The position numbers and the translations under genes were made by a program. From Patescibacteria group bacterium (GTDB taxonomy: Bacteria; Patescibacteriota; Minisyncoccia; Phycocordibacterales; UBA1550): 64,000 nucleotides of DNA. The stretch lies in assembly GCA_038062675.1 (NCBI GenBank), contig JBBTWP010000001.1:186059-250058 (forward strand), read 5' to 3'. Position 1 is the stretch's first letter. Every line of letters starts with the position of its first letter. The notes under the pieces are model-generated. The model searched no databases, had not been told where the DNA came from, and saw nothing but the letters and a program-made list of their open reading frames with translations. Below, piece after piece: positions 19,104 to 33,415 of this stretch.

Positions 19104-20348
19104 CTACAAAAACAACAAATTGTGCTCTATGTTGTCTGCTTCTGTTCCGATTTTTTCTTGTTTGAGTGCCTGCTGTGTGGAAGCAAGGTATACAACACGC
19201 TTGCCGAGCTTGTCCTCAAGGATATCGATCTGCTTGTGTATTGCGCTAAACTTTTCAGCTTTTTTTGTGTCACCAAATAGATCACGCTGTGAGGTGTAAT
19301 TCTGGAGAAGGTCATGAAGGGTGACGCCGGCGGTGCGGTACCGTGTATTTTTGTTGTGTATGGAATCAAATTTTTCATGCGCAAGAGTGGCAAGGATTTC
19401 GGGTGAGTTTGATGGCGACGAAAGTGGTATGGTGCCCGTTACTATTTTGAAGTCAGTTGTTTTGAGAAAAATAGAGAATTTTTTGGGGACCAGATTGTAG
19501 TGGCGTGCTTTCATGCACGCATCTTCCAAGTGCTTTGAGATTTGTGACCAGAGAAAAGTCTTGTCGCTGGTCACAGGATGAAAGGTTCGTGTCTTTTGTA
19601 TCGACGAGTAAGCAGCTTTTGTTTTGACATCGACGTCCATAAGGGATGTTCCGTGGAGTTCCTGCCAAATAGTCACATACGGTTTTGAGAGGTTTTGCTC
19701 CACCCATGCCAGCTCTTTCATGGTAAAATCAAACGCTGTGTGCACACCCCATCTCATGAGATGCTCGGAAGTTTTTGGGCCAATACCCCATACTTTGTTG
19801 ATGGGTATTTTTTTGAGAAATGTTGGCGCGGTGGCTGTTTCAATGATGGTTAGCCCGTTTGGCTTTACCCAGTTTGAGGCAACTTTTGCAAGCACCTTTG
19901 TGGGGGCGAGACCAATCGATACCGAAATGCAAAGCTCACTTTGTATTTCATTCTTGATCTGCTCGGCTATCTGGAGGTAGGGCATCTTGAGTGTTCGGTC
20001 GAGTCCAGTAAAGTCGGCAAAGCATTCGTCGATGCTGTACTCTTCTACGCCATATGCGTAGCGGTTGACGATGGCAAACATCATGTCTGAATATTGAACA
20101 TAGGAACGATAGTCTCCGGGAAGAATGACTACATTGGGAAAGTCTTGTTTAATTTTGAATATCGGCATTCCTCGCGTGACGCCAAGCGCCTTTGCTTCGT
20201 AGGAAAGCGCCGAAGCAATCCCCCGCTCCTCGCCGGTGACGACGGGCAGCCCTTTTAGTTTTGGATTTTTTGCAACCTCGACACCCACGAAAAAAGCATC
20301 ACCATCGATGTGGAAAATAACTTTTTCTTTTTTTATTGCGGTGCTCAT
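19104..20348 (-). CDS. dinB: DNA polymerase IV (Y-family)
   Basis: FHIDGDAFFVGVE and SIDECFADFTG catalytic motifs. Confidence 0.85.
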   Translation of the reverse strand: MSTAIKKEKVIFHIDGDAFFVGVEVAKNPKLKGLPVVTGEERGIASALSYEAKALGVTRGMPIFKIKQDFPNVVILPGDYRSYVQYSDMMFAIVNRYAYGVEEYSIDECFADFTGLDRTLKMPYLQIAEQIKNEIQSELCISVSIGLAPTKVLAKVASNWVKPNGLTIIETATAPTFLKKIPINKVWGIGPKTSEHLMRWGVHTAFDFTMKELAWVEQNLSKPYVTIWQELHGTSLMDVDVKTKAAYSSIQKTRTFHPVTSDKTFLWSQISKHLEDACMKARHYNLVPKKFSIFLKTTDFKIVTGTIPLSSPSNSPEILATLAHEKFDSIHNKNTRYRTAGVTLHDLLQNYTSQRDLFGDTKKAEKFSAIHKQIDILEDKLGKRVVYLASTQQALKQEKIGTEADNIEHNLLFL

Positions 20349-20891: not shown

Positions 20892-21329
20892 TCACACCCA
20901 CTTTATCGTGTGTCGACGATCGCGACACCCTGGTTGAGCAACATATATATATGTGCCAACAACAGGACAAATGCGCACGTATTTCCATCCACGCCTCTTC
21001 TCGTCATAAAGAAATAGTATTTGACCTGTCTCATCTTCTGTTTCGGCCTCTTCTCTTAATCGTAAAGTTTTCATTCTACCGTTTTCCATAAATAAGAGTC
21101 CTGCAACTTGGAAAAGTTCATCTTCCTCAAAGTGTGGACCAATGATGTGTACCATGTCCCCTATTTTGAGAAACTCGCGGTGTTTAAAGTTGCAACCTCG
21201 ATGACCAAGCAAAGAAGTGCCTCTTGCTGTTTTTTCGATTGGAACACCATGTTGAAGGCAAAACGGACAACGAAGAAATCCATTGATTGGTTCATAGAAA
21301 TCATTTACTTTAATCTGTGGGATACTCAT
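20892..21329 (-). CDS. hypothetical zinc-ribbon-containing protein
   Basis: CPFC...HRGC motif. No family assigned. Confidence 0.4.
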   Translation of the reverse strand: MSIPQIKVNDFYEPINGFLRCPFCLQHGVPIEKTARGTSLLGHRGCNFKHREFLKIGDMVHIIGPHFEEDELFQVAGLLFMENGRMKTLRLREEAETEDETGQILFLYDEKRRGWKYVRICPVVGTYIYVAQPGCRDRRHTIKWV

Positions 21330-21422
21330 GTGTCACCTCCTGACGTGGTGGTAGTTGGGCACCGCAACAGCTCTGTCTGATTGAAACCATAGCATGTTTC
21401 CTAATGTTTGTACATCCTATTT

Positions 21423-23057
21423 TTAGAGGGTGGGTGTTTCGATGATTCTCACAGGAAAAGACTGCAAGTGAAATTGTTGTTCAATTTTAAGGTGCGAACG
21501 ATCGGCCCAAGGCGTACTCTTCGGCTCAGTCGTCGGGGTAATACGACCCTCACTCCAAGTGAGGATGTACGAATTGTTTTCAAGGCCACCATAAGGATGT
21601 GCAACTTCAGCTTCCCCGCGCTCCTCGGGTGTTTCAATATGGACTAGTGGGGGATTCTCATAATCCTCGCATCCACCAAATGAACCAGCACTCGAGACTG
21701 CTCCAGTGGATAAATGTACACGATCGAATGTCCGACTCCAGCATCCCGCATCACCAAAAGGTGTCATGAGCAAAATTGTATTCAGTGTTTTCGAAACCCC
21801 AACAATACTATTGCGCTTGAGGGTGGTTGCAATTGTTTTGGTTTTTTGTAATGCCGGATCGTACATGTAGAGTGTTGTCGAGCATTGTCCTCGATAATCG
21901 TGGCAGCTTGTGGGGCCGGTGAGATAATAAATCACATTGTCGCTCGGGAGGAAATCTGAAATAATTGAGTTTTCAGAAACGATAAAACCGCTCTCAGCTG
22001 AAAAGGTGTGTTCTGTGGCACCATCGCTTGACAGGTGAAGACGTACAAGTGATGGTTGTTTGTTGTTTTTTGAAAAATAAAAATCTTGTGTGCTGGGTGA
22101 AAATGAATACATGTCGGCCCCACGGGGAAGCGAGAATATTTTGCGTGCAATACGAGTGTTTGTGTCTATAAAGAATAATCCCCTGTTGGAAGTTTTTTCA
22201 AATTTATCCTCTGCAACCAAAATACGTCCCACTCCAACTTTAGGAAATATCCCGTTTGCGATGGTGCTCTCGAGTGTCTTTACAATCCCGCGTGATTCCA
22301 GTTCGCACGCTTCAGGAAGCGGGTTTTCGTTGGTGCTTATTACACGAAAAGCAAGCGGATTTGGCTCAGAGAATCGCAGGTATAACGACAGATATTCGTA
22401 GGGGCGGTATGGTTCGTTTGATCCACCCCAGAGAAATGTCATGCGTGTCGTTGTTGCGGGATTGAATGGTGCGTATGACGTGAGGAGGTCGCGGTTTGCA
22501 GTTATGCTTCTCAACCATGACTCCTCTTTGTTGTTGCCGAATGTAACATTGTAGGTTGTTCGTGACTGGCCATGTTCCACGGACGGGTCCCCCGACAGAA
22601 GAATCGCGCAGGAATTATTTTTATTTACAAATACTTGTTGTATATTCTCAAAAAAGTATGGTTTGGTATCAAATGCCGATGGTTCGACAGCGATCCACGC
22701 ATCGGGCATGCGGACACGGAATGAATATTCCGGGAACTCGACATACGCCCCTTGTATATCCGGTATCTCGGGAATTTTTTCAGGGGACTTTTCAAACGGA
22801 GGAGTGCCAATAAAGCTTGGTGGGAATGTAGTTGGAAGGGGCCCGCCATACGTGGGAGCAGCAAGCCTTCTTCCTGAGGGGTCCCATGGGGGAGGCGGTA
22901 AGCTTGTAACGAGTGGTGTGCTCGACAAATTGGGCGCCCTTCCCTCAGCCACACGTTTTCCGACGAGATATCCACCAACCCCGATTATTGCAATGACGAT
23001 AAAAGTAGAGAAGATGAGCAACGCTAGATCCTGTTGTTTTTTAATTTTGAATGCCAT
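21423..23057 (-). CDS. membrane-anchored extracytoplasmic protein, unknown function
   Basis: N-terminal TM anchor and a large Pro-rich ectodomain. Confidence 0.5.
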   Translation of the reverse strand: MAFKIKKQQDLALLIFSTFIVIAIIGVGGYLVGKRVAEGRAPNLSSTPLVTSLPPPPWDPSGRRLAAPTYGGPLPTTFPPSFIGTPPFEKSPEKIPEIPDIQGAYVEFPEYSFRVRMPDAWIAVEPSAFDTKPYFFENIQQVFVNKNNSCAILLSGDPSVEHGQSRTTYNVTFGNNKEESWLRSITANRDLLTSYAPFNPATTTRMTFLWGGSNEPYRPYEYLSLYLRFSEPNPLAFRVISTNENPLPEACELESRGIVKTLESTIANGIFPKVGVGRILVAEDKFEKTSNRGLFFIDTNTRIARKIFSLPRGADMYSFSPSTQDFYFSKNNKQPSLVRLHLSSDGATEHTFSAESGFIVSENSIISDFLPSDNVIYYLTGPTSCHDYRGQCSTTLYMYDPALQKTKTIATTLKRNSIVGVSKTLNTILLMTPFGDAGCWSRTFDRVHLSTGAVSSAGSFGGCEDYENPPLVHIETPEERGEAEVAHPYGGLENNSYILTWSEGRITPTTEPKSTPWADRSHLKIEQQFHLQSFPVRIIETPTL

Positions 23058-23083
23058 TTTTTTTAATAATATCATATTTCAGT

Positions 23084-23797
23084 TCATGCTCGAATGGGCA
23101 CCTCAATAAGGAGAACTGTGGCGGGGGTGGTTGCGGAGATGGAAAAGCGGGCTGTTTCGGAAATGCCGATTGCATCGCGTTTTGAAAGATGTTCGCCGTC
23201 GATTTCCACTTCCCCTTCCACAACCATAACATATGCGCCATTTCCCTTGTGTGCAATGGTGTACACAAGGGAAGTTTTTGCATCCATGTCCGTCCATGCA
23301 ATGCGCGTGTTTTGGTAGATTTGCAACGTGCCAGGTGTCTGATCTCCTGAAACTAAAAACTGCCAAGCATTTTTTCTGAGAGTGGGGTCAAAGCGGGTTT
23401 GCGCATAGCGAGGTTCTGCGTTTTTTATGTTTGGCTCAATCCAAATCTGAAAAAGAGAAAGAGGTTCCGTTTTGGAAGCATTGTATTCGGAATGCACAAC
23501 TCCGGTCCCTGCGGACATTGCTTGTACTTCTCCTGCGTGTACCATACCCTTGTTTCCCATGTTGTCCTCGTGAGTGACAGCGCCCGAAAGCGGGATAGTG
23601 ATGATCTCAAAATTGCGATGCGGGTGCATGTCGAATTTTCCCGGAGGTGCAATGTGGTCGTCGTTCAAGACCCGCAACGCCCCAAACCCCATGCGCGTCG
23701 GCTCATACCAATCAGCAAAGCTAAAACTAAAATGAGTTTTTAGCCAGCCGTGATCCCCCTCCCCACGTTCCCCCGCTCGGTGAATTATTTTCTGCAT
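23084..23797 (-). CDS. pirin family cupin protein
   Basis: HPHRNFEIITIPLSG pirin N-terminal motif. Confidence 0.85.
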   Translation of the reverse strand: MQKIIHRAGERGEGDHGWLKTHFSFSFADWYEPTRMGFGALRVLNDDHIAPPGKFDMHPHRNFEIITIPLSGAVTHEDNMGNKGMVHAGEVQAMSAGTGVVHSEYNASKTEPLSLFQIWIEPNIKNAEPRYAQTRFDPTLRKNAWQFLVSGDQTPGTLQIYQNTRIAWTDMDAKTSLVYTIAHKGNGAYVMVVEGEVEIDGEHLSKRDAIGISETARFSISATTPATVLLIEVPIRA

Positions 23798-23810
23798 GGC
23801 TAAAAAGCTG

Positions 23811-24824
23811 TTATTTCTTTTTTCCTACTGCAAGCATGGTCAAAATGAGGCCAAGCATCTTGTCCTTGTGGGAGGGATCACTCTCGGCAACCAAGAGCGT
23901 GATGGCGGTAAGTGCTGGGGGTGTAATGCGCGAAGTGTCGAGCGCCTTCGCTTTTGCCAGGAACCACACAAACGCATATGCACCACTTCGTTTGTTCCCG
24001 TCGACGAAGGGGTGATTTTTAATAATGAAGTAAAGAAGGTGAGCAGCTTTTTCCTCGACACTTTGATACACATCTGCGCCGCCAAAAGATTGCATGACAT
24101 TTCCCACAATCCCGGCAATACTTCCCCGCTCGCGTTCAGTGGCAAAAAGGTCAGTCGCCTCACCTTTTCCAAGAAGTGATTTTTTAAGTGAAGAAAGAGC
24201 ATCGGAAAAAACATCGGCCGTGAGTTTAACCGATTTTTTTGTAGCACCCTTTGTGATCAAGGTGTCCTTGTCGTATGCGTCGAGAGAAAGCCATGTGTCA
24301 GCAAAAAGCGTAATGAGTTCAAGGACACCCTCTGTATCGATCGCCGTTCCCTTTGGGAGGAGCGCTTTTACGTCAGCTACGGTCTTCAGGAACGCATCAT
24401 AATTCTGTGCGATGCGCGACTTGTTGATGGTGTAGCCGTCGACGATATGAGCGCGTAAAGTTTTTGTCGCCCATTGGCGGAAAATGGTTGCTTTCTTGCT
24501 ATTCACTCGATATCCAACAGAAAGAATCATGTCGAGATTGTAATGCATTACATCACGGTCAACCTCGCGCTTCCCCTCCTTCTGAACTATCCGGAAATTC
24601 CGGAGAGTTGCAGAGGCTGTTAACTCCTTTGTTTTATAGATATTTTTGATATGTTCATTGATGGTACGCACATCCACGTCAAAAGCTGTCGCAATCTGCG
24701 CCTGTGTTGCCCATACGGTTTCCTTGCCAAAGTCGCCCCGAAGCTCGATAGCCCCCGATTTTGCTTGGTAAATCACTGTCTCTTTTTTTGTCGCCTTCGC
24801 TTTCATAATGACGTATTGTAACAC
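23811..24824 (-). CDS. RhuM-like N-domain fused to Fic/Doc family domain
   Basis: RhuM-like TVIYQAKSGAIELRGDFGKETVWATQAQIA. Doc-type motif HPFVDGNKRSGA. Confidence 0.7.
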   Translation of the reverse strand: MLQYVIMKAKATKKETVIYQAKSGAIELRGDFGKETVWATQAQIATAFDVDVRTINEHIKNIYKTKELTASATLRNFRIVQKEGKREVDRDVMHYNLDMILSVGYRVNSKKATIFRQWATKTLRAHIVDGYTINKSRIAQNYDAFLKTVADVKALLPKGTAIDTEGVLELITLFADTWLSLDAYDKDTLITKGATKKSVKLTADVFSDALSSLKKSLLGKGEATDLFATERERGSIAGIVGNVMQSFGGADVYQSVEEKAAHLLYFIIKNHPFVDGNKRSGAYAFVWFLAKAKALDTSRITPPALTAITLLVAESDPSHKDKMLGLILTMLAVGKKK

Positions 24825-24839
24825 ATCAACGCTTGTTTT

Positions 24840-25889
24840 CTAGGACGCTTTTTGGTCAGTAGCAAAATCTAGGTCTTGCTCAGGTATTCCTAGTGTCTTG
24901 CCGTACGCAGTTGCGTCTGTCCAAGTTGATTTGTCTCCACTTTGAATCGTGAAAATTCTATCCTTAAAAATAATTTTGCCGATATTTTTTTCTGATTGTC
25001 GCAGATGAATATACCACGGGCCGCTCGTCAGGGACTGTGAAAGCTCGGTGAGTTGTTTTTCGCCTACCGAGACGTGGTACACCATTTCGTCCCCTTCTCG
25101 TTCTGTTTTGTTGACCTTCAGCTTCTCAAGGATACGCTCGTCGCTCAAACTTTTCTTGATGACCACTCCCTTGAATGCTCGTTTTTCAAAATTGATTACG
25201 CATTCCTCGTAGAGTTTTTTGATTCTATTGTATTCCTTTTCTGCCTTCTCGACAGCAGCAAGAAGATCGCCCGCTTTTGAGTTTTTGACGGTATCACGTA
25301 CTGCCTCTTTTGCAATGTCTTTTGCCTTGCTTTCGAGATGTCCTCGTACGTTGGTGAGCTCTTTCAATTTTTCCTCAAGTAACTTTTTCAAGTTGAAACA
25401 TCCAGGCTCGTCACCCCCTTCTCCCCCCTTTTTCTTTTTTAGTAATTTACCAGCAATGAAACCAAACGGAAGCGTTGCAAGAAGTGCAAGGATTACCCAA
25501 AGTATCGGATTTGTGGAGGTCTTTTGTGGGGTGGTCGGTATCGGACTTGAGGGTGTTGGTGTGGTGGGTGCTATTGTCGTGACCGGCGTTGGTGCTTGGG
25601 GGTTCGCCGGACGCGGCGCGAGAGGCGTGGAGGTTGTTGCTGGCTTGGGTGCTGATGCCGGTGCGGTTATAGGTGCCGGGCGCGGCGCCGACACCGCTCC
25701 TGATGTCGAAGTGGAAGCAGGTGCAACTGCGGGGTCGGTAGTCCCTGTTGGTTCTATAGCTGGCTTAGTTTTAGAAAGGGTTGCGGGGACTGGCTCTGCT
25801 ATCGCGCCCGAGTCTCCCGTTTGTGCGAGTATTGGGCTTGGGGTGAACAGAACGAGGAGTAACAGTAATTTGGTCATGCTTCTGTTCAT
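24840..25889 (-). CDS. secreted Pro/Thr/Ala-rich protein with central TM segment
   Basis: Signal peptide, long PT-rich low-complexity region, TM segment, charged coiled C-terminal domain. Confidence 0.5.
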   Translation of the reverse strand: MNRSMTKLLLLLVLFTPSPILAQTGDSGAIAEPVPATLSKTKPAIEPTGTTDPAVAPASTSTSGAVSAPRPAPITAPASAPKPATTSTPLAPRPANPQAPTPVTTIAPTTPTPSSPIPTTPQKTSTNPILWVILALLATLPFGFIAGKLLKKKKGGEGGDEPGCFNLKKLLEEKLKELTNVRGHLESKAKDIAKEAVRDTVKNSKAGDLLAAVEKAEKEYNRIKKLYEECVINFEKRAFKGVVIKKSLSDERILEKLKVNKTEREGDEMVYHVSVGEKQLTELSQSLTSGPWYIHLRQSEKNIGKIIFKDRIFTIQSGDKSTWTDATAYGKTLGIPEQDLDFATDQKAS

Positions 25890-26197
25890 GTGGTTGTTAT
25901 GTTAAAAAATATTCTACGCCTTTTGTTCGTATTTCAAGATCGCATCAACAAGTGGTGGCACCCACTTTTTTTGAGTAAACAAAAGTGCCAAACCAACGAG
26001 AATCAGGACCAAAAGAACTACGCGCACTACTCGAATAGTTTTGCTCGAGTTATTTTCCATTCGCTCTAAGATGGGCTGCATATATATTAATAGTATACTA
26101 CAATTTTGAGATTGTGAATGTGCAGAAATTAATCGCTATTTAGTTGTGTTGCTTGAGCGCCAGCCGAGCTCACGAAGAATTTCTTTGGTTCCGTTCA

Positions 26198-26680
26198 CTA
26201 CAAAAAAAGCGGATTGTAGGTAAAACTAAAAGCTCCCGAGGGTTCGGTGTAAGTCAATGTTTCAGGACGATTTTCAGTATTTGATAGGCGTGTTGTGAAA
26301 ATGTGTGGCAAAAATATAAATGCGCCGATGATGCCTGCAGTAAGTGTTGCCAAGAGGACTGCTCCTGCTGCGACGTCTTTTGTATCCCGTGCGTAGGGGT
26401 GGTATTCGGGAGACGTGAGGTTGATATCGATTTCAATCGCGGTGTTGAATGCTTCTGCAACCAAAACAAGTCCACTTGCAAGAATGAGGGCAATCCACTC
26501 CGTGCTCGTAATCTTGAATACAAATCCAAGCGCCACCGCAAGCACGAGAACTGCTGCGTGCACCCACGCATTATGAGTGCTCTTGAAAAAAATTGTTATT
26601 CCTCGACCAGCATGCGTAAAACTCTCTGCACGCTTCACCATCGAAAACTTTTCATCTCTAATCCCCTTGTTGTCTATCAT
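26198..26680 (-). CDS. dgkA: diacylglycerol kinase / undecaprenol kinase (DgkA family)
   Basis: Three-TM small kinase with a conserved EAFNTAIE region. Confidence 0.75.
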   Translation of the reverse strand: MIDNKGIRDEKFSMVKRAESFTHAGRGITIFFKSTHNAWVHAAVLVLAVALGFVFKITSTEWIALILASGLVLVAEAFNTAIEIDINLTSPEYHPYARDTKDVAAGAVLLATLTAGIIGAFIFLPHIFTTRLSNTENRPETLTYTEPSGAFSFTYNPLFL

Positions 26681-26758
26681 GGTGTAATTATAGCAGATTA
26701 CGGATTTTTTTAGATCACTGTTCGCCTACGGCAAGGACCGCCCTTGCCGTAGGCATTG

Positions 26759-27262
26759 TTATACAATCTTTACTCTTTGTGTAATCTGCGCCCTTAAGTT
26801 GTCTTCATTTGGGGTTGAAGTTACATGAAGAATAGGAATACCGCAATGATTTAATACCCTATCTACAAATCCGTCACGTAGTTGCCTTTCTGGTTTTTCG
26901 TGTGAGGGGTCATCAAGTTCAATTACTAAAATAGGTGAGATATTCTGCTTATCAAAAAGTACAAAGTCCACCGACTTTAAATCAATTTTGTTTCTGTAGC
27001 CGCTTTTTAGTGAACCCTTGCCACTTAGTAGGACAATTTTATCGAGAGCTAATTGTGGGAAAATATAATATTGACCCTCAACAGCTTTTTCAAGTATCAC
27101 AAAAAACTCATGCTCAGCGCGAGTAAGCAAGTAGGACTTTTTCATATATGGGAGCCACTCTTCTTTTTTGGCTGATTTTCCAAGATCATTTTTCTGAGCA
27201 AGCAACTTAAAAATGAACCCCAGAACAAAGACAATGAGCGCGAGAACTATAAGCTTGTTCAT
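26759..27262 (-). CDS. DUF2726-like membrane-anchored protein
   Basis: N-terminal TM anchor plus NERD/DUF2726-like domain (LVIELDDPSHEKPER). Confidence 0.55.
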   Translation of the reverse strand: MNKLIVLALIVFVLGFIFKLLAQKNDLGKSAKKEEWLPYMKKSYLLTRAEHEFFVILEKAVEGQYYIFPQLALDKIVLLSGKGSLKSGYRNKIDLKSVDFVLFDKQNISPILVIELDDPSHEKPERQLRDGFVDRVLNHCGIPILHVTSTPNEDNLRAQITQRVKIV

Positions 27263-27429
27263 ATTGCACTAAGTATAGCCTGTGAAATTAACCTCGGCAA
27301 CCTTATTTCGGCCTCTCAAAGTAGGTTTTCTTTGTGGTTCGGGAGTCTTTGCAAATTACACCACACAACTTATTTCACGAGGTCTCACCTCGAGCCCGTC
27401 GAATCAACGAGAGGTGGTACCCACATTTT

Positions 27430-28293
27430 TTAGGTAAACAAATTGAATTTGTTGTTATACTGATAATCGTGCAGTTTTTCTATAAAGTTTATCTTTTTTT
27501 CGGCGAAATGATCTTTTGACGGCATAAGGAATTCTTTTATTTTTTTATCTAGCCAAGTAGAAAATTTCTCGCATGAAAACAAAATCAAAAAGAAAAGCAG
27601 AAGTAATGACGGGTTTGATAGTGAAAAATCTCCATACGCCCAGAGATGACCGAAAAAAATGGCGGACGGGAAAGTCGCCAATAAAATGGCAAAAAGAACA
27701 TTCTTTGAGATATAGAAGTACTTGAAAAACGGCTCAATATTTTTCTTCTCGTCTTTAGGCGGAGGATTCTCACCCCTACCATAATGATATTTGTCGATAG
27801 CCGTTTGAATTCGTTCATAACGAGCATCGGATAACCAAAACAAAAATTTCAACACTCTATTGGCTAACTCGTTGAGCATGCGTTTGAAAAAAAGTCTATC
27901 AGAGAGATGATTTGCCACTAAAATCTCTACAAACTCATTCATTGTAAAACTTCTACTTGATAACTGGTGGTTAACTTTTTGGGTCGCATTATCAAATGTA
28001 AATTCGCTACCATCCGAAAAAAAGTTTGTGACTTTTCTTTTGTACTCCTCTCCTTCGGTGATGATATAACTAGTCTTTCCCACCTCTTTTTCGGGCCTAG
28101 TCATTACTACGGAATAAAAAAATCCGCGATCTAGGGCAGCGATTTTGATAAACATCCGCCTTTCATCCTTAAAATAGGGCGTATTTTCCGGATAAAGACG
28201 AATCAGAGAAAATCCCATTTCATTCTGAAATGCTGTGATTGACTCATCGGAGTTTTGGTGTGTATAAAGTTTTACGAATTCATCGCTCTTCAT
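27430..28293 (-). CDS. hypothetical protein with C-terminal TM segments
   Basis: ORF only. AT-rich island gene. Confidence 0.4.
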   Translation of the reverse strand: MKSDEFVKLYTHQNSDESITAFQNEMGFSLIRLYPENTPYFKDERRMFIKIAALDRGFFYSVVMTRPEKEVGKTSYIITEGEEYKRKVTNFFSDGSEFTFDNATQKVNHQLSSRSFTMNEFVEILVANHLSDRLFFKRMLNELANRVLKFLFWLSDARYERIQTAIDKYHYGRGENPPPKDEKKNIEPFFKYFYISKNVLFAILLATFPSAIFFGHLWAYGDFSLSNPSLLLLFFLILFSCEKFSTWLDKKIKEFLMPSKDHFAEKKINFIEKLHDYQYNNKFNLFT

Positions 28294-28315
28294 AGGATTT
28301 TATGCTTTTAGCACA

Positions 28316-29479
28316 TTATCGATTTCCTTTTGCTCGATTGTGTGTTTTACAGAGCATCTGACAGTTCTTTACTGAGGTAGCGCCACCCTTGCTCCACGCT
28401 GATACATGGTCGGCATCCATTTCGGCTAGCTTCCAAACTTTACCCTTGTTGGCATCATGTCCAAGAGTACAAAGAGGACAGTTCGATTCATTTTTAGCTT
28501 TAGCTTTGTCTGTTTGCGTTGCGTAAACTGACTTTTTTGTTGCTTCGTCAAAAACTCTCACCTCTAGCAGTTTTGTATCGGCTGAACCGCCGAGAATGTA
28601 CTCAAAAATCCCTTTACGGTTTTTGATATACGGATCACCGTAGAGCTTATGTAACTCTCTTGATACCTTAGCGGGGTCGTAAGCTTTCTTGTGGTACTCC
28701 TCATACAGTCGTCCCCACTCAAGACCTTTCATCTCGCTCTCCACATCTTTGAATATACTAGAAACCCACTCTATAACACTATTAAAATATGTTTTTAATT
28801 CAGTGATATTTTTGTTACTACGATGACTACTCATGTAATCGTTGATATTACCTTTGCTCACCCAATCAAGTGCTCGCTCCAGAAACTCCTGCCTGTTTGC
28901 GCTACCTGAGACATACGCACTCCATTTTTGAATATTGGCATTCTGGCTGTTACTAAATTCTTCTTTACCAAGTGTTACAAATGGACCATAATAAACAGCG
29001 TTCAATAACTCTTGATGACTCAAAGGAACACCAGAGATGTTAATCGTCTTAAACCACTCTATTATTTCACTTTCTTTACCTTCACATTCGTAAATGAGTA
29101 GCTTCGATTCCAAAATCTTAATCTGCTTATCTTTAGCAATACCACTAAAATATTGCTCCATACCATTTTCATCCTTAACAGCAAATTTGTCGGTCACGTA
29201 GCGTCCAATACTGGTAATGCGTTGTTGTCCGTCCAAAACTTCAAGGACATCGTCACTGACTTTATTAAAATATATCAATCCAAGTGGGTACCCCTTTAGG
29301 ATTGATTCGATAACGGCAACATCCTTTTTACCATCTGCATAAATATAGTTACGCTGATACTCTGGCTGAATAGTTAATTTGCCTGACAAGCCAAACAACC
29401 CCTTGCCTTCAAGCTCGTTGTAAACAAATCCTTCACAGATATCTTTGACGGTGATGCTAGTTTTTAAAATTGTTTTCAT
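28316..29479 (-). CDS. DUF262 (ParB-like/GmrS) domain protein fused to C-terminal HNH nuclease
   Basis: DUF262 hallmark [11 protein letters not shown]-terminal [13 protein letters not shown]...[15 protein letters not shown]. Confidence 0.7.
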
Positions 29480-29492
29480 ATTATTTTTTTGT

Positions 29493-30098
29493 TTAACTTA
29501 CTATGTCTGGCAAGTCTCGCAATTTCTTGCCTTTATATTTAAAATAATCCGCACCTGCATAAGCTCCACTCTCGTTCAGTTCGCCTCGTTGCTCATAGAG
29601 TTTATACGCGAGCGGAGATAATTTCCAAACCTGACCACCATATTCCACTTCTCGTTCACCGACAATTTTCGCTGTTATTTTTTCATCATCCTTAAAAACA
29701 ATCTCTTCCCCATTTTTCAAACCTTTTTTATAAAAGCTGAACAGTCTGCCTTGTCTTCTCACTTTCGATACTTCATCAAACTCTTTTTCCTGGTCAATGT
29801 TTTCAGGGTAAATAACTTTACCTTTAAATGAAAGTAGGAGCTCCCGAATCAATTCTTGGTCTAGGGCGAATAGTTCACTCTCACCAACTCGGTGTTTATT
29901 AAAAATATCGTGTAAGAGAGTTTCTTTCTCGACATAATCCTCAAGTTCAATTGCAAAAAATCTCTTTAACCCAGCAACATTGTAATAACCATTCGCTTCA
30001 AGGTTTCGCATCCTCTCCTGGTAATTATTTGTGCCTGTTTGTCCGATTTTTATCAAACCTGAAACAGCTGTTGTCGTTATATAAATAATTCCCTTCAT
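29493..30098 (-). CDS. GIY-YIG superfamily (T5orf172-like) nuclease
   Basis: [21 protein letters not shown] (GIY...YIG-like) followed by RMRNLE...N. Stop abuts the upstream methyltransferase gene. Start taken at internal MKGIIY. Confidence 0.6.
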
Positions 30099-30099
30099 A

Positions 30100-31272
30100 T
30101 TATTTTTTATTATGCCTGATAAAAATTCTTTTATACGCCATCTTTGCGACGTTATTTTCATAATAACCAGCTGTTGGGTTACCTTCCTTATATGCGCCTG
30201 TACCACCTGCTTTATAGTAATCGGCAACAAATTCTTTTGTTAAACCTGGTGTTTTCTTAAATTTATCATCAACAATACCATTATCACTTGTTCCTAAAAT
30301 ACTAAATTGTTCCGGAGAATATTTGTCGAGAAAACTAATCGGTACCCCTATAACACCTTTATAATCGCTCGGAATGGCATCAGTAAATGGTACTTCTATA
30401 GCGTCATAATTGTCATAGCGGTTATAGGATTCTTTGCCTTTGACTTCTTTATGTTTGCTGTACTTCAAATTGTCCTCCATAGTCATGAGTGGTAATGGCT
30501 TGTGACGTCGCCCGTGGTCAAGATTGGTAAACCAACAAGAATTACCGAGTCTTGTATAATCACCCACATATCCGAGTCGAGCAGCTTTCTGCTTGTCTTT
30601 TTCGTCAACTTCTGTACCTTTTGGAACGGCAAAAACCATATCACTACCATTTCCAGTCGCCCCCAACCAAGCTTTGTTTTCCTTAATTAGAGGAAAAACT
30701 TCCTTGTAGGTAATCGCGTTCATGTTGCCGATAATCACAAACTGTTTATTGGCTTCCACGATCCACGCCAAAAATTCACGGAACAGCGAGAACGGCGGAT
30801 TGGTAATGATGATGTCTGCCTCATCGCGGAGTTTTTTAATCTCATCACTCTTAAAGTCCCCGTCACCTTTTAAATACCGCCACTCAAGGTCTTCGACATC
30901 TGTCTTGCCGTCACCAGTCTTGTCGTGAGTTAGGGTAAAAATTTTTCCGTTTTTGGAAGTTTTGTTTTTATTGTATTGCGAGTCGTTTGCTTCAAAGAGG
31001 GTCGGCTGATAGTCACTTTTATAGCTCTTGCTATCTGAAGCATAACTGGTACTAATAAGTTTTTTTAAACCGAGTTTCTGAAAGTTTTGAGCTAAAAATT
31101 TTGTAAAGTTGCTCCACTCTGGGTCATCGCAAGGCAATAAAATTATTTTACCCCGAAATGCGTCCGGGTTATATTCCAAATACGCTTCAATCTCTTTTTG
31201 AATATCGTTATACTGCGTATAGAACTCGTCATTTTTTGCCTTTTTTGCGTTTGTGAGATTACTGTTTGCCAT
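30100..31272 (-). CDS. N6-adenine DNA methyltransferase (EcoRI-methylase-like)
   Basis: NDEFYTQ N-terminal motif and IITNPPFS (NPPF motif IV). Confidence 0.75.
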   Translation of the reverse strand: MANSNLTNAKKAKNDEFYTQYNDIQKEIEAYLEYNPDAFRGKIILLPCDDPEWSNFTKFLAQNFQKLGLKKLISTSYASDSKSYKSDYQPTLFEANDSQYNKNKTSKNGKIFTLTHDKTGDGKTDVEDLEWRYLKGDGDFKSDEIKKLRDEADIIITNPPFSLFREFLAWIVEANKQFVIIGNMNAITYKEVFPLIKENKAWLGATGNGSDMVFAVPKGTEVDEKDKQKAARLGYVGDYTRLGNSCWFTNLDHGRRHKPLPLMTMEDNLKYSKHKEVKGKESYNRYDNYDAIEVPFTDAIPSDYKGVIGVPISFLDKYSPEQFSILGTSDNGIVDDKFKKTPGLTKEFVADYYKAGGTGAYKEGNPTAGYYENNVAKMAYKRIFIRHNKK

Positions 31273-31280
31273 AATATTTT

Positions 31281-31310
31281 AATCGAACCTAGATATACAG
31301 CTTCAAAGGG
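31281..31310 (-). repeat. partial copy 1 of tRNA-Gln 3' portion
   Basis: aatcgaacctagatatacagcttcaaaggg, identical to tRNA positions. Its following 28 nt resemble the flank of copy 2. Confidence 0.7.
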
Positions 31311-31338
31311 CAACCTATTGTCGGTTTATGTTCTTGGC

Positions 31339-31380
31339 TGGGAGACTAGGAATCGAACCTAGATATACAGCTTCAAAGGG
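31339..31380 (-). repeat. partial copy 2 of tRNA-Gln 3' 42 nt (att-like direct repeat)
   Basis: tgggagactaggaatcgaacctagatatacagcttcaaaggg, identical to the 3' 42 nt of the adjacent tRNA. Its 5' continuation cannot form acceptor or anticodon stems. Confidence 0.75.
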
Positions 31381-31408
31381 CGGCCTATTGGTGGTTCATG
31401 AAGAGTGC

Positions 31409-31478
31409 TGGGAGACTAGGAATCGAACCTAGATATACAGCTTCAAAGGCTGCTGTCCTACCGTTAGACGATCTCCCA
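31409..31478 (-). tRNA. tRNA-Gln (anticodon UUG)
   Basis: Manual fold of the 70-nt gene: acceptor UGGGAGA/UCUCCCA with a U1-A72 pair, D-stem GUCU/GGAC, anticodon stem GCAGC/GCUGU, loop CUUUGAA, T-arm CUAGG-UUCGAUU-CCUAG. CCA not encoded. Confidence 0.75.
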
Positions 31479-31513
31479 GCACTATTCACGAACAACACCA
31501 ATTCCTACGGACC

Positions 31514-31548
31514 GGATAAAACAGTGTACAGACACTGTTTTATTATCC
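31514..31548. repeat. hairpin repeat 1 upstream of tRNA
   Basis: ggataaaacagtgtacagacactgttttattatcc. Part of an about 100-nt tandem unit that also contains cacgaacaacaccaattcctacgg. Confidence 0.6.
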
Positions 31549-31610
31549 TACCATCAGACGCCCTCTTGAGCCAAGAACACAAACAACGACAATTTCTACT
31601 GCGTAGAATC

Positions 31611-31645
31611 GGATGAAACAATGTACTCACATTGTTTCATTATCC
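31611..31645. repeat. hairpin repeat 2 upstream of tRNA
   Basis: ggatgaaacaatgtactcacattgtttcattatcc. Followed by a degenerate tcctacc...cacaaacaacaccaattcctgcg unit. Confidence 0.6.
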
Positions 31646-31779
31646 TACCGCTCGCCGATCTTCCCTGCACTCTTCACAAACAACACCAATTCCTGCGAAT
31701 TCTGAAAAATAGTGCGTCGTCATAAAATCGTTGACGCTGTCGCCATATTAGCGCGAAATGGCTCTGAAAACAAGCGAAA

Positions 31780-32055
31780 CTAGAACAAATCACTGTGTGA
31801 GCCAATGTCTACGAGCACCAAGACAAGCTTATCGCCTATTATCTGATACATGAGTAAAATATCATTTTGTATATGACATTCACGGAGACTTTTGAGCCCA
31901 CCGGAAAGTTCATGATCTAGATATTTAGGGTCAAGCTTTTTTCCTTGTGCGAGGGCGTCAACCACTTCTTCAAGTTTCGTCGGATTAAAATCTTTGTGGC
32001 GTTTGATACGCTTATGTGCACGCTGGTATCTGCGCGATGGGAAGATTAGATACAT
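31780..32055 (-). CDS. yafQ: type II toxin, YafQ/RelE family mRNA interferase
   Basis: YafQ-like C-terminus LLMYQIIGDKLVLVLVDIGSHSDLF. Confidence 0.8.
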   Translation of the reverse strand: MYLIFPSRRYQRAHKRIKRHKDFNPTKLEEVVDALAQGKKLDPKYLDHELSGGLKSLRECHIQNDILLMYQIIGDKLVLVLVDIGSHSDLF

Positions 32056-32062
32056 GAAACTT

Positions 32063-32326
32063 CTATGCTATCGCATCATGGAGTTCGCGTGCTGTGCGAT
32101 ACCCCTTACCCTTTAAAGCTTCTTTTGCCTCGCGGACCAGTTCAGCCTTTTTTTCTTCAGGCAAAAAATCTGCACTCATGACCGGAAACGGAATAGAGTT
32201 CGTGCGCACAACTTGGGCGAGAAAAAGCTTCACGCCAGTTGACATGTCGAGCCCCATCGCTTGCAGGGCTTTGTTTGCCGCTTTTTTCATCTTGGGGTCA
32301 ATGCGAATTTGTACGGTTGTTGTCAT
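32063..32326 (-). CDS. dinJ: type II antitoxin, DinJ/RelB family
   Basis: Ribbon-helix-helix N-terminus IRIDPKMKKAANKALQAMGL. Immediately upstream of the toxin. Confidence 0.8.
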   Translation of the reverse strand: MTTTVQIRIDPKMKKAANKALQAMGLDMSTGVKLFLAQVVRTNSIPFPVMSADFLPEEKKAELVREAKEALKGKGYRTARELHDAIA

Positions 32327-32368: not shown

Positions 32369-33415
32369 CTATTTTTCAGCTGGGGTTGTGCCCACAATGC
32401 GCATGAGTGCAAGCTCGAGGGGGAGGGTGGGGATGGTGGCGACGTGGAGGTCGCGGTAGGCGCTCAAGAGCTCGGCAACTTCGCGGGAGGCAAGGGTTTT
32501 GACAGCTTCTTTTGCGAGGCGCTCCAAAAATGCAAAATCTTCTTCGGCGACATCCTCTTGGATGTGCTTTTTCATTGCTGGCGCGAAACGGAGCAGGAGC
32601 ACAAAGCGCACTTTGCGGAGCACGAGGTCGAGAAGCACTTTCATGTCCCCTGTCCCCTTTTCTGCTTCCCTGAGTGTGATGAGCCCTTTTTCCAAGTTGC
32701 GGTCGGCAATGGCGGAAATGATGTCGTTCACGATGCGGTTTTGGGGTGCGCCGACAATAGCCTCGACTTCTTCGTGGGATATTTTTTTGTCGGGCGATGA
32801 CGTGATGACTTTTTGTAAAATGCCGAGCGTGTCGCGAAATGATCCATCGCCCAAAAGTGCCAAGAGGTCGGCAGACGAAGGCTCGAGTTTAATCCCCTCT
32901 TTTTTTGCGACGGTCTCAATCAATTTTTTCAAAATTGCGTGCGTTGGTGTTTTGAATCGATACGTCTGACAGCGCGAGACGATAGTCTCGGGGAGTTTTT
33001 GTTCTTCAGTGGTGGCGAGGATAAAAATGACATGACGTGGCGGTTCCTCGAGAGTTTTCAAAAGTGCGTTGAACGCTTCTTTGGTGAGCATGTGCACTTC
33101 GTCGACAATATACACTTTGTATTTTGAGTCGAAGGGTAATGTGTGGACCGCGTCGCGGAGTGCGCGAATGTCATCCACGCCACGGTTTGAGGCAGCGTCG
33201 ATCTCATACGTGTCGTTGTCGGTGGAGCCAATCTCGCGGGCAAAAATACGCGCAAGCGAGGTTTTGCCGGTGCCACGTGAGCCGGAGAAAAGGTAGGCGT
33301 GGGCGATGGTATCGTTCTTGATAGCGCCCGAAAGCCCTGTAACTACGGCCTCCTGCCCAATGACGTCCGCAAATGAAGCAGGGCGGTATTTGCGGTAGAG
33401 GGTTATGTCTGACAT
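32369..33415 (-). CDS. dnaX: DNA polymerase III subunit gamma/tau (short form)
   Basis: Walker A GSRGTGKTS and clamp-loader box SRCQTYRF. Confidence 0.85.
   Translation of the reverse strand: MSDITLYRKYRPASFADVIGQEAVVTGLSGAIKNDTIAHAYLFSGSRGTGKTSLARIFAREIGSTDNDTYEIDAASNRGVDDIRALRDAVHTLPFDSKYKVYIVDEVHMLTKEAFNALLKTLEEPPRHVIFILATTEEQKLPETIVSRCQTYRFKTPTHAILKKLIETVAKKEGIKLEPSSADLLALLGDGSFRDTLGILQKVITSSPDKKISHEEVEAIVGAPQNRIVNDIISAIADRNLEKGLITLREAEKGTGDMKVLLDLVLRKVRFVLLLRFAPAMKKHIQEDVAEEDFAFLERLAKEAVKTLASREVAELLSAYRDLHVATIPTLPLELALMRIVGTTPAEK

Follow-up and report, generated by a model that had tools for sequence, protein, structure and literature searches.

In the window, as we call the whole 64-kb stretch of contig JBBTWP010000001.1 analysed here, a single intact tRNA-Gln(UUG) gene lies inside two to three concentric shells of broken tRNA-Gln halves, next to a defence island. 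We consider it rather probable that this nest was built by two or three rounds of invasion by tRNA-Gln cassettes devoid of an open reading frame (ORF), and that the island is a separate insertion. The observations from which this reading starts are the anatomy of the nest, the nested pairing of the sequences between its parts, the presence or absence of the arrangement in related genomes, the cassettes of relatives in which a GIY-YIG gene accompanies a complete tRNA-Gln, and the foreign inner tRNAs found there.

An intact tRNA-Gln gene among broken halves

The layout of the nest can be written as 5'A(5'B(tRNA)3'D)3'E, where A and B are 5' fragments and D and E are 3' fragments of tRNA-Gln. Followed in the direction of the tRNA, from 31704 to 31281, the order is L0, A, hairpin A, L1, B, hairpin B, L2, tRNA-Gln, S1, D, S2 and E, with L for leaders and S for trailers, of which there are two types, alpha and beta:

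31668..31704, minus strand: L0, third leader, alpha type, 77% to L2 (family D3)
31643..31667, minus strand: A, degenerate tRNA-Gln 5' fragment of shell 2, 82% to the tRNA over 31643-31664 (family D4)
31613..31640, minus strand: hairpin A, perfect 12-bp palindrome with two differences per arm from hairpin B, both compensated (I6)
31571..31613, minus strand: L1, beta-type leader of shell 1, forming an inverted repeat with S2 over the whole inner unit (I3, 16 nt, 94%; I4)
31546..31570, minus strand: B, degenerate tRNA-Gln 5' fragment of shell 1, 73% to the 5' part of the tRNA over 31546-31567 (family D4)
31516..31543, minus strand: hairpin B, located between fragment B and L2, a perfect 12-bp palindrome whose loop has 4 nt (I5)
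31479..31516, minus strand: L2, leader of the intact tRNA, alpha type (..CCGGTCCGTAGGAATTGGTGTTGTTCGTGAATAGTGC), inverted repeat of S1 (I1, 25 nt, 88% complementary)
31408..31478, minus strand: intact tRNA-Gln(UUG), innermost unit of the nest (ARAGORN, Rfam RF00005)
31380..31407, minus strand: S1, trailer of the intact tRNA, reverse complement of L2 in its 5' part
31338..31379, minus strand: D, 42-nt 3' fragment beginning at the anticodon loop and complete at its 3' end, 100% identical to the tRNA, shell-1 partner of B
31310..31337, minus strand: S2, beta-type trailer of shell 1 and reverse complement of L1 (inverted-repeat pairing, duplex energy)
31281..31309, minus strand: E, 3' fragment of shell 2, 29 nt, identical to the tRNA, cut off in the T loop

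The intact gene was called at 31407-31478 on the minus strand by ARAGORN and at 31408-31478 by Rfam (RF00005, 65.7 bits for a gathering score of 29, E=1e-13). An earlier reading of this stretch, made from the letters alone (the sequence-only reading), had placed a tRNA-Gln(UUG) of 70 nucleotides (nt) on this strand; a tRNA finder run on the locus, as it had proposed, confirms the gene, and the length becomes 71-72 nt. Both programs find it to be the sole tRNA within the window, and neither calls a tRNA at fragments A, B, D or E.

On the 3' side, a 29-mer (AATCGAACC..AAAGG) occurs in three exact copies, at 31281, 31351 and 31421, and a 22-mer over the 3' end of the acceptor occurs in the window at 31338 and 31408 only, with 0 copies expected in shuffled sequence in either case. 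The two direct copies of the 3' half and their 70-nt periodicity, which had been noticed from the sequence, thus hold (family D1, 84% identity over 70 nt). The 3' part of S1 (ATAGGCCGCC) is a shortened copy of tRNA positions ~20-31. Fragment E meets the island in the sequence ..ggttcgatt|aaaatattATG, the ATG being the start of a methylase gene, and neither its missing 13 nt nor a trailer for L0 was found elsewhere in the window. On the 5' side, fragments A and B comprise the acceptor 5' strand and the D arm, and both terminate in GGTAGGA. A flank motif recurs at 31487-31509 and 31675-31697 (0 expected in shuffles), with a diverged third copy at 31578-31597, so that the two units with perfect hairpins, degenerate tRNA 5' copies and a flank motif that the sequence-only reading had described on this side also stand (I5, I6, D4; 0 expected).

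Repeats such as these could have been misjoined or duplicated by the assembler, and two of the four contigs with an identical dnaX do end inside the repeats. However, the 601-nt stretch 31200-31800 is identical in contigs of two separately assembled Hainich groundwater samples (one of them possibly the window's own source), the two contigs that end within the repeats agree with it up to their ends, and the same design is found in many unrelated assemblies. An assembly artefact, which the sequence-only reading had named as what would undo it, is therefore hardly credible.

Cognate inverted repeats in nested order

A feature that the sequence-only reading had not reported is that the flanks of the two sides (28 nt each on the 3' side) form inverted repeats with one another, in nested order: across the tRNA, L2 pairs with S1, and L1 pairs with S2 over everything between (I1-I4). 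In DNA alignments, each L:S pair is an imperfect inverted repeat of 22-25 nt that adjoins the acceptor stem, and L has two extra nucleotides at the same place in all six of the pairs with that indel. Duplex energies are specific to the cognate partners, with -30.8 kcal/mol for L2:S1 (shuffles, -15.6 +/- 3.1 kcal/mol) and -32.3 kcal/mol for L1:S2, as against -10.6 (L1:S1) and -14.2 kcal/mol for the swapped pairs and averages of -13 to -16 kcal/mol for shuffled partners.

Two types of repeat can be distinguished, alpha (L0, L2 and S1) and beta (L1 and S2). From the outside in, the types run alpha, beta, alpha, tRNA, and then alpha, beta on the trailer side, a mirrored order that is expected if whole L-tRNA-S units were inserted one within another. 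L0 gives -33.4 kcal/mol with the alpha-type S1. No S3 trailer for it was found in the window, and its 5' fragment and hairpin are missing as well; L0 is probably the remnant of a third shell. Mismatches within L:S pairs show no G-U bias on the transcribed strand (4 versus 3, plus 6 transversions), because of which a role of the clamp in RNA, although possible, is not supported.

The same design in related genomes

Relatives were sought in metagenomes by a scan for two anticodon-arm motifs 50-80 nt apart, which returned 25 loci, eight of them relevant (loci are given here by three-digit L numbers). The unit of 5' fragment, hairpin, L, tRNA, S and 3' fragment recurs in L023, L027, L029 and L031. 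L027 has one shell, whose outer 5' half is a perfect copy of that of the tRNA; L023 shows a pair of 5' units, the first with an alpha and the second with a beta leader, and its trailer is of the beta type; the two shells of L029 differ in kind; and L031 has one shell and an "empty" unit, where L and S close on each other without a tRNA. The alpha type flanks the intact tRNA in the window and in L027, and the beta type does so in L023. In L003 the order is tRNA, S1, 3' half, S2, 3' half, and both spacers are orthologous to those of the window, whose S2 is also orthologous to a spacer of L023; this conservation between the window and L003 is seen although their DnaX proteins are only 72% identical.

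The hairpin-type cassette has the signature GGTAGGATAAT..CCGGTC. In L002 the hairpin is absent, and the 5' fragment runs straight into L. For a second kind of cassette (L022, L039, L029 and L020), the insertion point is in the D loop, behind GGTA, and these four bases are the foundation of a short hairpin. At the site linked to dnaX, L004, L045, L048, L049 and L050 have a plain tRNA-Gln without fragments, that is, the kind of empty site for which the sequence-only reading had suggested searching related genomes.

The empty unit of L031, which follows the first 3' fragment, consists of a partial 5' fragment, hairpin, L, tt, S and 3' fragment, and its L:S stem carries compensated changes. The spacer after it repeats the first one exactly and lies at the end of the contig, so a tandem duplication or an assembly problem is possible there.

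As to the rest of the scan, 16 of the 25 loci were rejected as chance matches, mostly CRISPR (clustered regularly interspaced short palindromic repeats) arrays with CCTTTGAAGC in the repeat, plus other tandem repeats. The CRISPR matches (L011, L013-L018, L025, L026, L032-L034, L037, L038 and L040) are unrelated to the nest, and L019 is not a tRNA locus. The same two-motif scan of viral contigs gave only CRISPR arrays and a coding region.

Cassettes with a GIY-YIG gene

In more distant relatives, a cassette with a coding gene is found in the same target. The resident tRNA-Gln of L028 is split after ..GTCTAA by about 330 nt. Within these lie a GIY-YIG ORF (Pfam, 2e-14), an entire tRNA-Gln and a trailer whose sequence is complementary to that of the ORF's end; the resident gene resumes at TAGGAC. 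A homologue search with the L028 protein led to six further loci that were read (L053-L058), and at all seven a cassette with a GIY-YIG gene and a complete tRNA-Gln interrupts the D loop of the resident tRNA-Gln. The order is the same throughout (outer 5' fragment, CTTGCCCCGCCAAATTT, ORF, inner tRNA-Gln, S, AAATTTGGCGGGGTGAAG, outer 3' fragment), and five of the seven cassettes lie directly after dnaX, as in the window.

The L028 protein has 98 homologues at an identity of at least 52%. In 93 of these the called ORF reads in frame into the D arm of the tRNA (..SSNGRT..), in 78 the T arm is translated as well (..GSNPS..), and the peptides of the anticodon region (AFE, DSE, DSG) are compatible with tRNA-Gln anticodons UUG or CUG; 13 homologues start inside the translated 5' fragment (..RDRLTCPAKF). 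As called, these proteins (P0121-P0218) thus bear false C-terminal tails (..AAGSSNGRT.AFEA..LGSNPSPAAL) in 93 of 98 cases and false N-termini in 13.

Inner and outer tRNAs differ in their acceptor or T stems, each stem being internally complementary, in L020, L028, L055, L057 and L058. Because the stems differ and yet are compensated within each gene, the two tRNAs of these five loci are distinct working alleles, and the inner one came from elsewhere. In L022, L039, L053, L054 and L056, both are the same allele. Taken over both kinds of locus, the site is occupied in the window, L002, L023, L027, L029, L031, L028 and L053-L058, and empty at the five loci with a plain tRNA-Gln.

In comparison with transposons, terminal inverted repeats are present, namely L:S of 22-25 nt and, in the GIY-YIG type, the ends CCCCGCCAAATTT and AAATTTGGCGGGG. 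TAGG(A) flanks the hairpin-type cassette on both sides and GGTA flanks the D-loop type, which could equally be retained tRNA sequence, and no transposase is present.

Hairpins and a possible role in RNA

Five 12-bp hairpins from four genomes could be aligned without gaps. Their pairs are 100% Watson-Crick, with two-sided changes at nine of the 12, no one-sided change and no G-U, a pattern that was reached by none of 500 shuffles. A DNA palindrome would account for it better than a selected RNA helix. Solo hairpins built from both cassette ends sit in dead outer fragments of the GIY-YIG loci, as in L057, where one (CTTGCCCCGCC-acag-GGCGGGGTGAA) lies in the anticodon loop. From these solo hairpins and from the closed L:S pair in L031, the hairpins of the window may be regarded as collapsed cassette ends or as repair scars.

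More generally, between one and three short hairpins, all perfect, are present in the anticodon loop or the T arm of the dead outer 3' fragments of GIY-YIG loci (L053 ~1880-1905, L057 ~1565-1590, L058 ~1560-1625, L055 ~1900-2010), and several of these consist of the two cassette-end sequences, CTTGYCCCGCC .. GGCGGGRTGAAG. The outermost 5' fragment of L023 has its own hairpin insertion of ~50 nt in the D-arm region (~700-755, CGCCTGCC .. GGCAGTGGCG), a further example of dead fragments gathering palindromic insertions.

The covariation of the hairpins, together with the co-evolution of the 3' halves with the tRNA in each genome, could also be read as the mark of an RNA device, in which the halves would be parts of a split or intron-containing tRNA, or small RNAs (decoys or regulators) released from a precursor. 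Once RNase P and RNase Z had freed the inner tRNA, L:S could hold the outer halves together, like the helix of archaeal split tRNAs (PMC3218864). However, the acceptor strands of the 5' fragments, UCAAGAG and AGGGAAG, cannot pair with the UCUCCCA of the 3' fragments, every outer copy lacks tRNA positions ~25-31 or has them in shortened form, so that no complete outer cloverleaf is formed, and hairpins without any G-U would be unusual for a selected RNA. The arrangement is, moreover, absent from close relatives, and Rfam, run with permissive E-values on the nest and on L003, returned tRNA only, plus chance matches of the microRNA kind from long inverted repeats. We therefore deem such a device very unlikely.

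Proposed history of the nest

According to the history that we propose, a cassette would be a complete tRNA-Gln between the 22-25-nt inverted repeats L and S, which extend its acceptor stem. It would enter a resident tRNA-Gln at the end of the D arm, after ..GGTAGGA, and split it into a dead 5' and a dead 3' fragment, and the tRNA of the cassette would take over the function. The next cassette would enter the sole intact target left, the inner tRNA, and thereby add another shell, so that repeated insertion of a linear L-tRNA-S segment into the only intact copy would explain the nest. The window would hold two complete rounds (B..D and A..E, in which the alpha and beta types alternate) and the remnant of a third (L0), which is the order of events that we infer. 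The alternation of types hints that each type may be immune to itself and open to the other.

The ORF-less units of the window would stem from the same kind of event as the GIY-YIG cassettes, and could be relatives or derivatives of that element, which is widespread in the candidate phyla radiation (CPR) and whose GIY-YIG gene lies just upstream of, and overlaps, the inner tRNA-Gln. The putative endonuclease of the element is predicted to cut cassette-free tRNA-Gln genes, into which the element would be copied during repair; the process would be homing without splicing, rendered harmless by the replacement tRNA. Since the nest has no ORF and the window no homologue of the nuclease, its units would be decayed copies, or copies moved in trans.

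Several points weigh against this history. The 3' fragments are 100% identical to the tRNA, whereas the 5' fragments have diverged by 18-27%. A simple co-ageing of the two halves of one gene does not predict such a contrast, and either gene conversion among the 70-nt tandem copies or some constraint is needed. Gene conversion among 42-nt direct repeats 70 nt apart could have kept the 3' halves identical, and the 5' copies would drift because, being 24 nt long and separated by hairpins, they are poorer substrates for it; a function for the 3' halves is also possible. A homologue of the GIY-YIG gene is absent from the window and the nest (tblastn with two cassette proteins, E > 1). Outside the tRNA, the similarity between the hairpin type and the GIY-YIG type is weak, amounting to GTTTGTG versus GTTTCTG in L and CAGAAAC in S; CAAAGC/GCTTTG, common to L031 and L054, is a further weak link, and a blastn-short comparison of the two types of cassette gave little beyond the tRNA parts. 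The insertion points of the kinds of cassette differ by a few nucleotides, being after position ~17-18, ~21 or ~24.

It can also be the case that the nest arose locally, without any mobile element, through expansion of one ancestral arrangement by unequal crossing-over or replication slippage between the repeated halves, and that the inverted repeats were kept for precursor processing or as a folding clamp. The strict 70-nt tandem period and the identity of the 3' halves with the tRNA, as in gene conversion, are in accord with this, as is the sharing of one allele by the inner and outer tRNAs in L022, L039, L053, L054 and L056. A promoter-like sequence upstream of the outermost 5' fragment in L023 and L027 would likewise have the inner tRNA cut from a long precursor; in the nest of the window there is no match to the sigma-70 consensus, and a likely promoter is suggested only by comparison with L031, L023 and L027. 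However, independent duplications on the two sides would give alpha and beta leaders mirrored by their trailers only by chance, and for each type there is a genome where it encloses an intact tRNA (the window and L027 for alpha, L023 for beta). Nor does a local origin agree with the foreign inner alleles of five loci, with the nuclease gene in the same design, with the lack of G-U bias in the L:S mismatches or with close relatives that lack the arrangement, and we hold it to be unlikely.

Beyond the window, it seems to us an evenly balanced proposition that CPR bacteria harbour a class of selfish mini-cassettes, with or without a GIY-YIG gene, which home into tRNA-Gln and destroy it, supply a tRNA-Gln of their own and leave a concentric record of the invasions. 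In the full-text literature on GIY-YIG and tRNA-Gln, on split or nested tRNA genes in Patescibacteria and on tRNA introns in CPR, we found no published description of such a nested tRNA-Gln/GIY-YIG arrangement; nearest in print are SegB of phage T4 (PMC2330249) and the disruption of archaeal tRNA genes by mobile elements (PMC3293823, PMC3218864). What would be new is gene replacement instead of splicing, together with recursive nesting, in selfish DNA of the homing type, of which the window would be a fossil beside an ordinary defence island. If this is true, a homing element can invade an essential RNA gene without a ribozyme, by replacing the gene rather than splicing out, and the element would be a bacterial and still-active counterpart to the debated idea that mobile elements fragmented archaeal tRNA genes. 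The nesting would then give a readable order of past invasions, and the small GIY-YIG proteins that form a large family in CPR genomes, and whose genes are miscalled into the tRNA in 93 of 98 cases, would have been given a target.

The adjoining island and the tRNA-Gln hot spot

The native gene order in this lineage is dnaX, tRNA-Gln, dinB, and the neighbours of the nest in the window are the following:

32369..33415, minus strand: dnaX, conserved upstream neighbour of tRNA-Gln in the lineage (Pfam)
31780..32326, minus strand: YafQ (31780-32055) and RelB/DinJ (32063-32326), between dnaX and the nest (Pfam)
20892..31280, minus strand: inserted variable block, the defence island (Pfam, PADLOC, synteny with L001, L002 and L004)
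19107..20330, minus strand: dinB-like Y-family polymerase (Pfam IMS; tblastn, 70-72% to the gene next to tRNA-Gln in L001 and L002)

DnaX has 72-75% amino-acid identity to Candidatus Yonathbacteria, which places the organism among CPR bacteria near that group, and the exact DnaX protein is on record from metagenomes of the Hainich aquifer. In L001 and L002 the dinB-like gene follows tRNA-Gln within a few hundred bases, and the window, L004 and L010 each have a different cargo of 7-10 kb between the two, so the interval after tRNA-Gln is a real insertion hot spot.

By synteny, the left limit of the island lies between 20331 and 20892 (about 20.4-20.9 kb), which makes it ~10.4-11 kb long; the sequence-only reading had let the block begin at 23.8 kb. 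Pfam bore out the gene content given by that reading. The island encodes an EcoRI-type methylase (PF13651, 1e-121; PADLOC MTase_II), a T5orf172 protein (PADLOC PDC-S57), a DUF262-HNH protein (GmrSD_N+HNH; PADLOC REase_II at 7e-86), RhuM-Fic (PDC-S23), a hypothetical protein, DUF2726, DgkA, pirin and a Pro/Thr-rich exported protein with a signal peptide. The methylase and DUF262-HNH genes are separated by the T5orf172 gene, and their partnership as a type II restriction-modification system is only a candidate one. Proteins of 550 and 145 amino acids have no family match. The low content of guanine plus cytosine (GC) that had been ascribed to the block applies to about 26-31.3 kb (0.37-0.42), and not to 23.8-26 kb (0.45-0.49). 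The AT-rich part is thus the tRNA-proximal half (26000-31300), the distal half (20900-26000) being at the usual genome GC, and the block could have been pieced together from older and newer segments. A homologue of the Pro/Thr-rich protein occurs in L027, about 2 kb from that locus's own tRNA-Gln.

The position of this island raises the explanation preferred by the sequence-only reading, that the half-tRNA repeats are the classic footprint of repeated site-specific integration at a tRNA 3' end. Integrase islands or prophages would have hit the 3' part of tRNA-Gln time and again, every hit displacing a 3' half that stays behind as an attachment (att) scar, and would then have decayed to 28-nt remnants, the present island being the latest arrival. 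tRNA genes are the usual targets of tyrosine integrases, the direct repeats of the 3' half are exact over 29-42 nt, a foreign and partly low-GC defence island adjoins the 3' side of the tRNA, and the site is a hot spot that holds other cargo in L004 and L010, all of which would suit such scars. The island, however, has no integrase, as that reading had itself remarked: Pfam and PADLOC found neither a tyrosine nor a serine recombinase among its ORFs of at least 145 amino acids at 20.9-31.3 kb. Nor is there a copy of the 3' half at its far end. Further att-like copies had been looked for, and the 29-mer and 22-mer, with up to 3 mismatches, occur in the window only at 31281-31449; the border near 20.3-20.9 kb, read directly, shows no tRNA-derived repeat.

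The structure of the nest argues in the same direction. Conservative recombination at an att core yields one-sided direct repeats, and integration at the 3' end does not leave 5' halves upstream, so neither these nor the concentric inverted repeats are accounted for. Each spacer is the inverted repeat of its own upstream leader, and the pairs are nested, which fits the insertion of whole leader-tRNA-trailer units; the conservation of the spacers between genomes with DnaX only 72% identical is not that of random remnants. In addition, the island is joined in the middle of the T loop of a dead fragment, and related genomes with the same design carry a GIY-YIG endonuclease gene inside. In our judgement, att scars are quite unlikely.

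The island is therefore best treated as an insertion separate from the nest, that is, as one of two histories at one hot spot. Because it begins in the middle of the T loop of fragment E, it would have come after the nest was built and have removed the end of E and whatever lay beyond. As a caution, half-tRNA repeats beside an island are not always att sites, and in the annotation of the window the island borders and the tRNA fragments should be handled separately.

Comparison with known systems

Group I introns with homing endonuclease genes occur in the anticodon loops of bacterial tRNAs and are self-splicing ribozymes. Like them, the cassettes are selfish insertions in a bacterial tRNA gene whose host stays viable; unlike them, they have too little sequence that is neither coding nor tRNA for a group I core, and viability is kept by the replacement gene. 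Rickettsia palindromic elements and mitochondrial GC clusters are small perfect hairpins inserted in genes, including RNA genes. The hairpins of the window answer to the same description and differ in being tied to one target gene and to cassette ends.

SegB is a free-standing GIY-YIG homing endonuclease of T-even phages, located in the tRNA gene cluster of T4 (PMC2330249), and belongs to the type of nuclease behind intron-less homing in these phages. In both systems a small GIY-YIG gene lies among or next to tRNA genes. The target of SegB is in the tRNA region of the allele without the gene, and the nuclease gene is co-inherited with flanking tRNA sequence through repair, without splicing (PMC2330249), as is proposed for the cassettes. 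However, the tRNA genes on either side of SegB are intact and no target is left broken, whereas the CPR cassette splits its target permanently, is chromosomal, carries a full replacement tRNA and an inverted-repeat clamp, can nest within itself and, in the window, has no nuclease gene.

Integrative elements that target tRNA genes (bacterial islands and prophages, archaeal elements of the pNOB8/SSV type, and the case of the Caldiarchaeum tRNA-Thr, PMC3293823) resemble the nest in their target, in that the sequence they carry restores its function, in the displaced tRNA fragments that they leave and in that the site becomes a hot spot. They differ in having an integrase and an att core, with one-sided direct repeats that bound the element; the nest has no integrase, its fragments are concentric and two-sided, and a whole tRNA is supplied instead of just the portion past the crossover. 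In the split, permuted and multi-intron tRNAs of archaea, halves are also encoded apart, and a leader/trailer helix could join them (PMC3218864, PMC3293823), but those halves are spliced at bulge-helix-bulge motifs, whereas the outer halves of the window look dead and an intact gene is present. Mobile elements have been proposed as the cause of the disruption of archaeal tRNA genes (PMC3293823, PMC3218864).

Other insertions at the locus

The T loop of dead tRNA-Gln 3' fragments holds a conserved insert of ~50 nt (GGCCGCAG, a covarying hairpin, CGYAGGTTTCGAG .. GAGAGGC) in L001 (11240-11300), L003 (1850-1915 and 1975-2030) and L023 (about 1075-1130). No Rfam match was obtained for it, and its motif was not matched in the scan of viral contigs. 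In L023 it immediately precedes the gene for an IS200-like Y1 transposase (Pfam, 5e-13), and the insert may be the end or a miniature derivative of an IS200/IS605-type element. Such a transposase was also considered as the agent of the hairpins and was dropped for the window, in which it has no significant homologue (best tblastn E = 0.009).

In L010 (2740-3029), a 5' fragment (TGCCGGATCGTCTAATGGTAGGA) matches the acceptor 3' strand (TCCGGCA) of a tRNA called 200 nt downstream, whose own 5' strand (TGGGGGA) does not match TCCGGCA; the stretch between them (2774-2956) is masked (N) and may contain an inner unit. The 3' end of dnaX in L003 contains a long-hairpin insertion of ~165 nt (1530-1695), bounded by CTGCTCCGCAATAAT and ATTATTGCGGAGCA, after which the final dnaX codons are repeated; Rfam gives only spurious microRNA-precursor matches there.

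On the other side of the tRNA, the DinJ-YafQ pair pointed out by the sequence-only reading was recognised by PF04221 (1.4e-11) and PF15738 (1.1e-25) in adjacent genes, as in a type II toxin-antitoxin module. The same pair occupies the same place in L031, which has a nest, and in L049, which has a plain tRNA, and it is a further insertion between dnaX and the nest. In L049 (1418-2095) it is inserted at the 3' end of dnaX, whose last ~15 codons recur as a copy behind the toxin gene. This module too thus behaves as a target-duplicating insertion.

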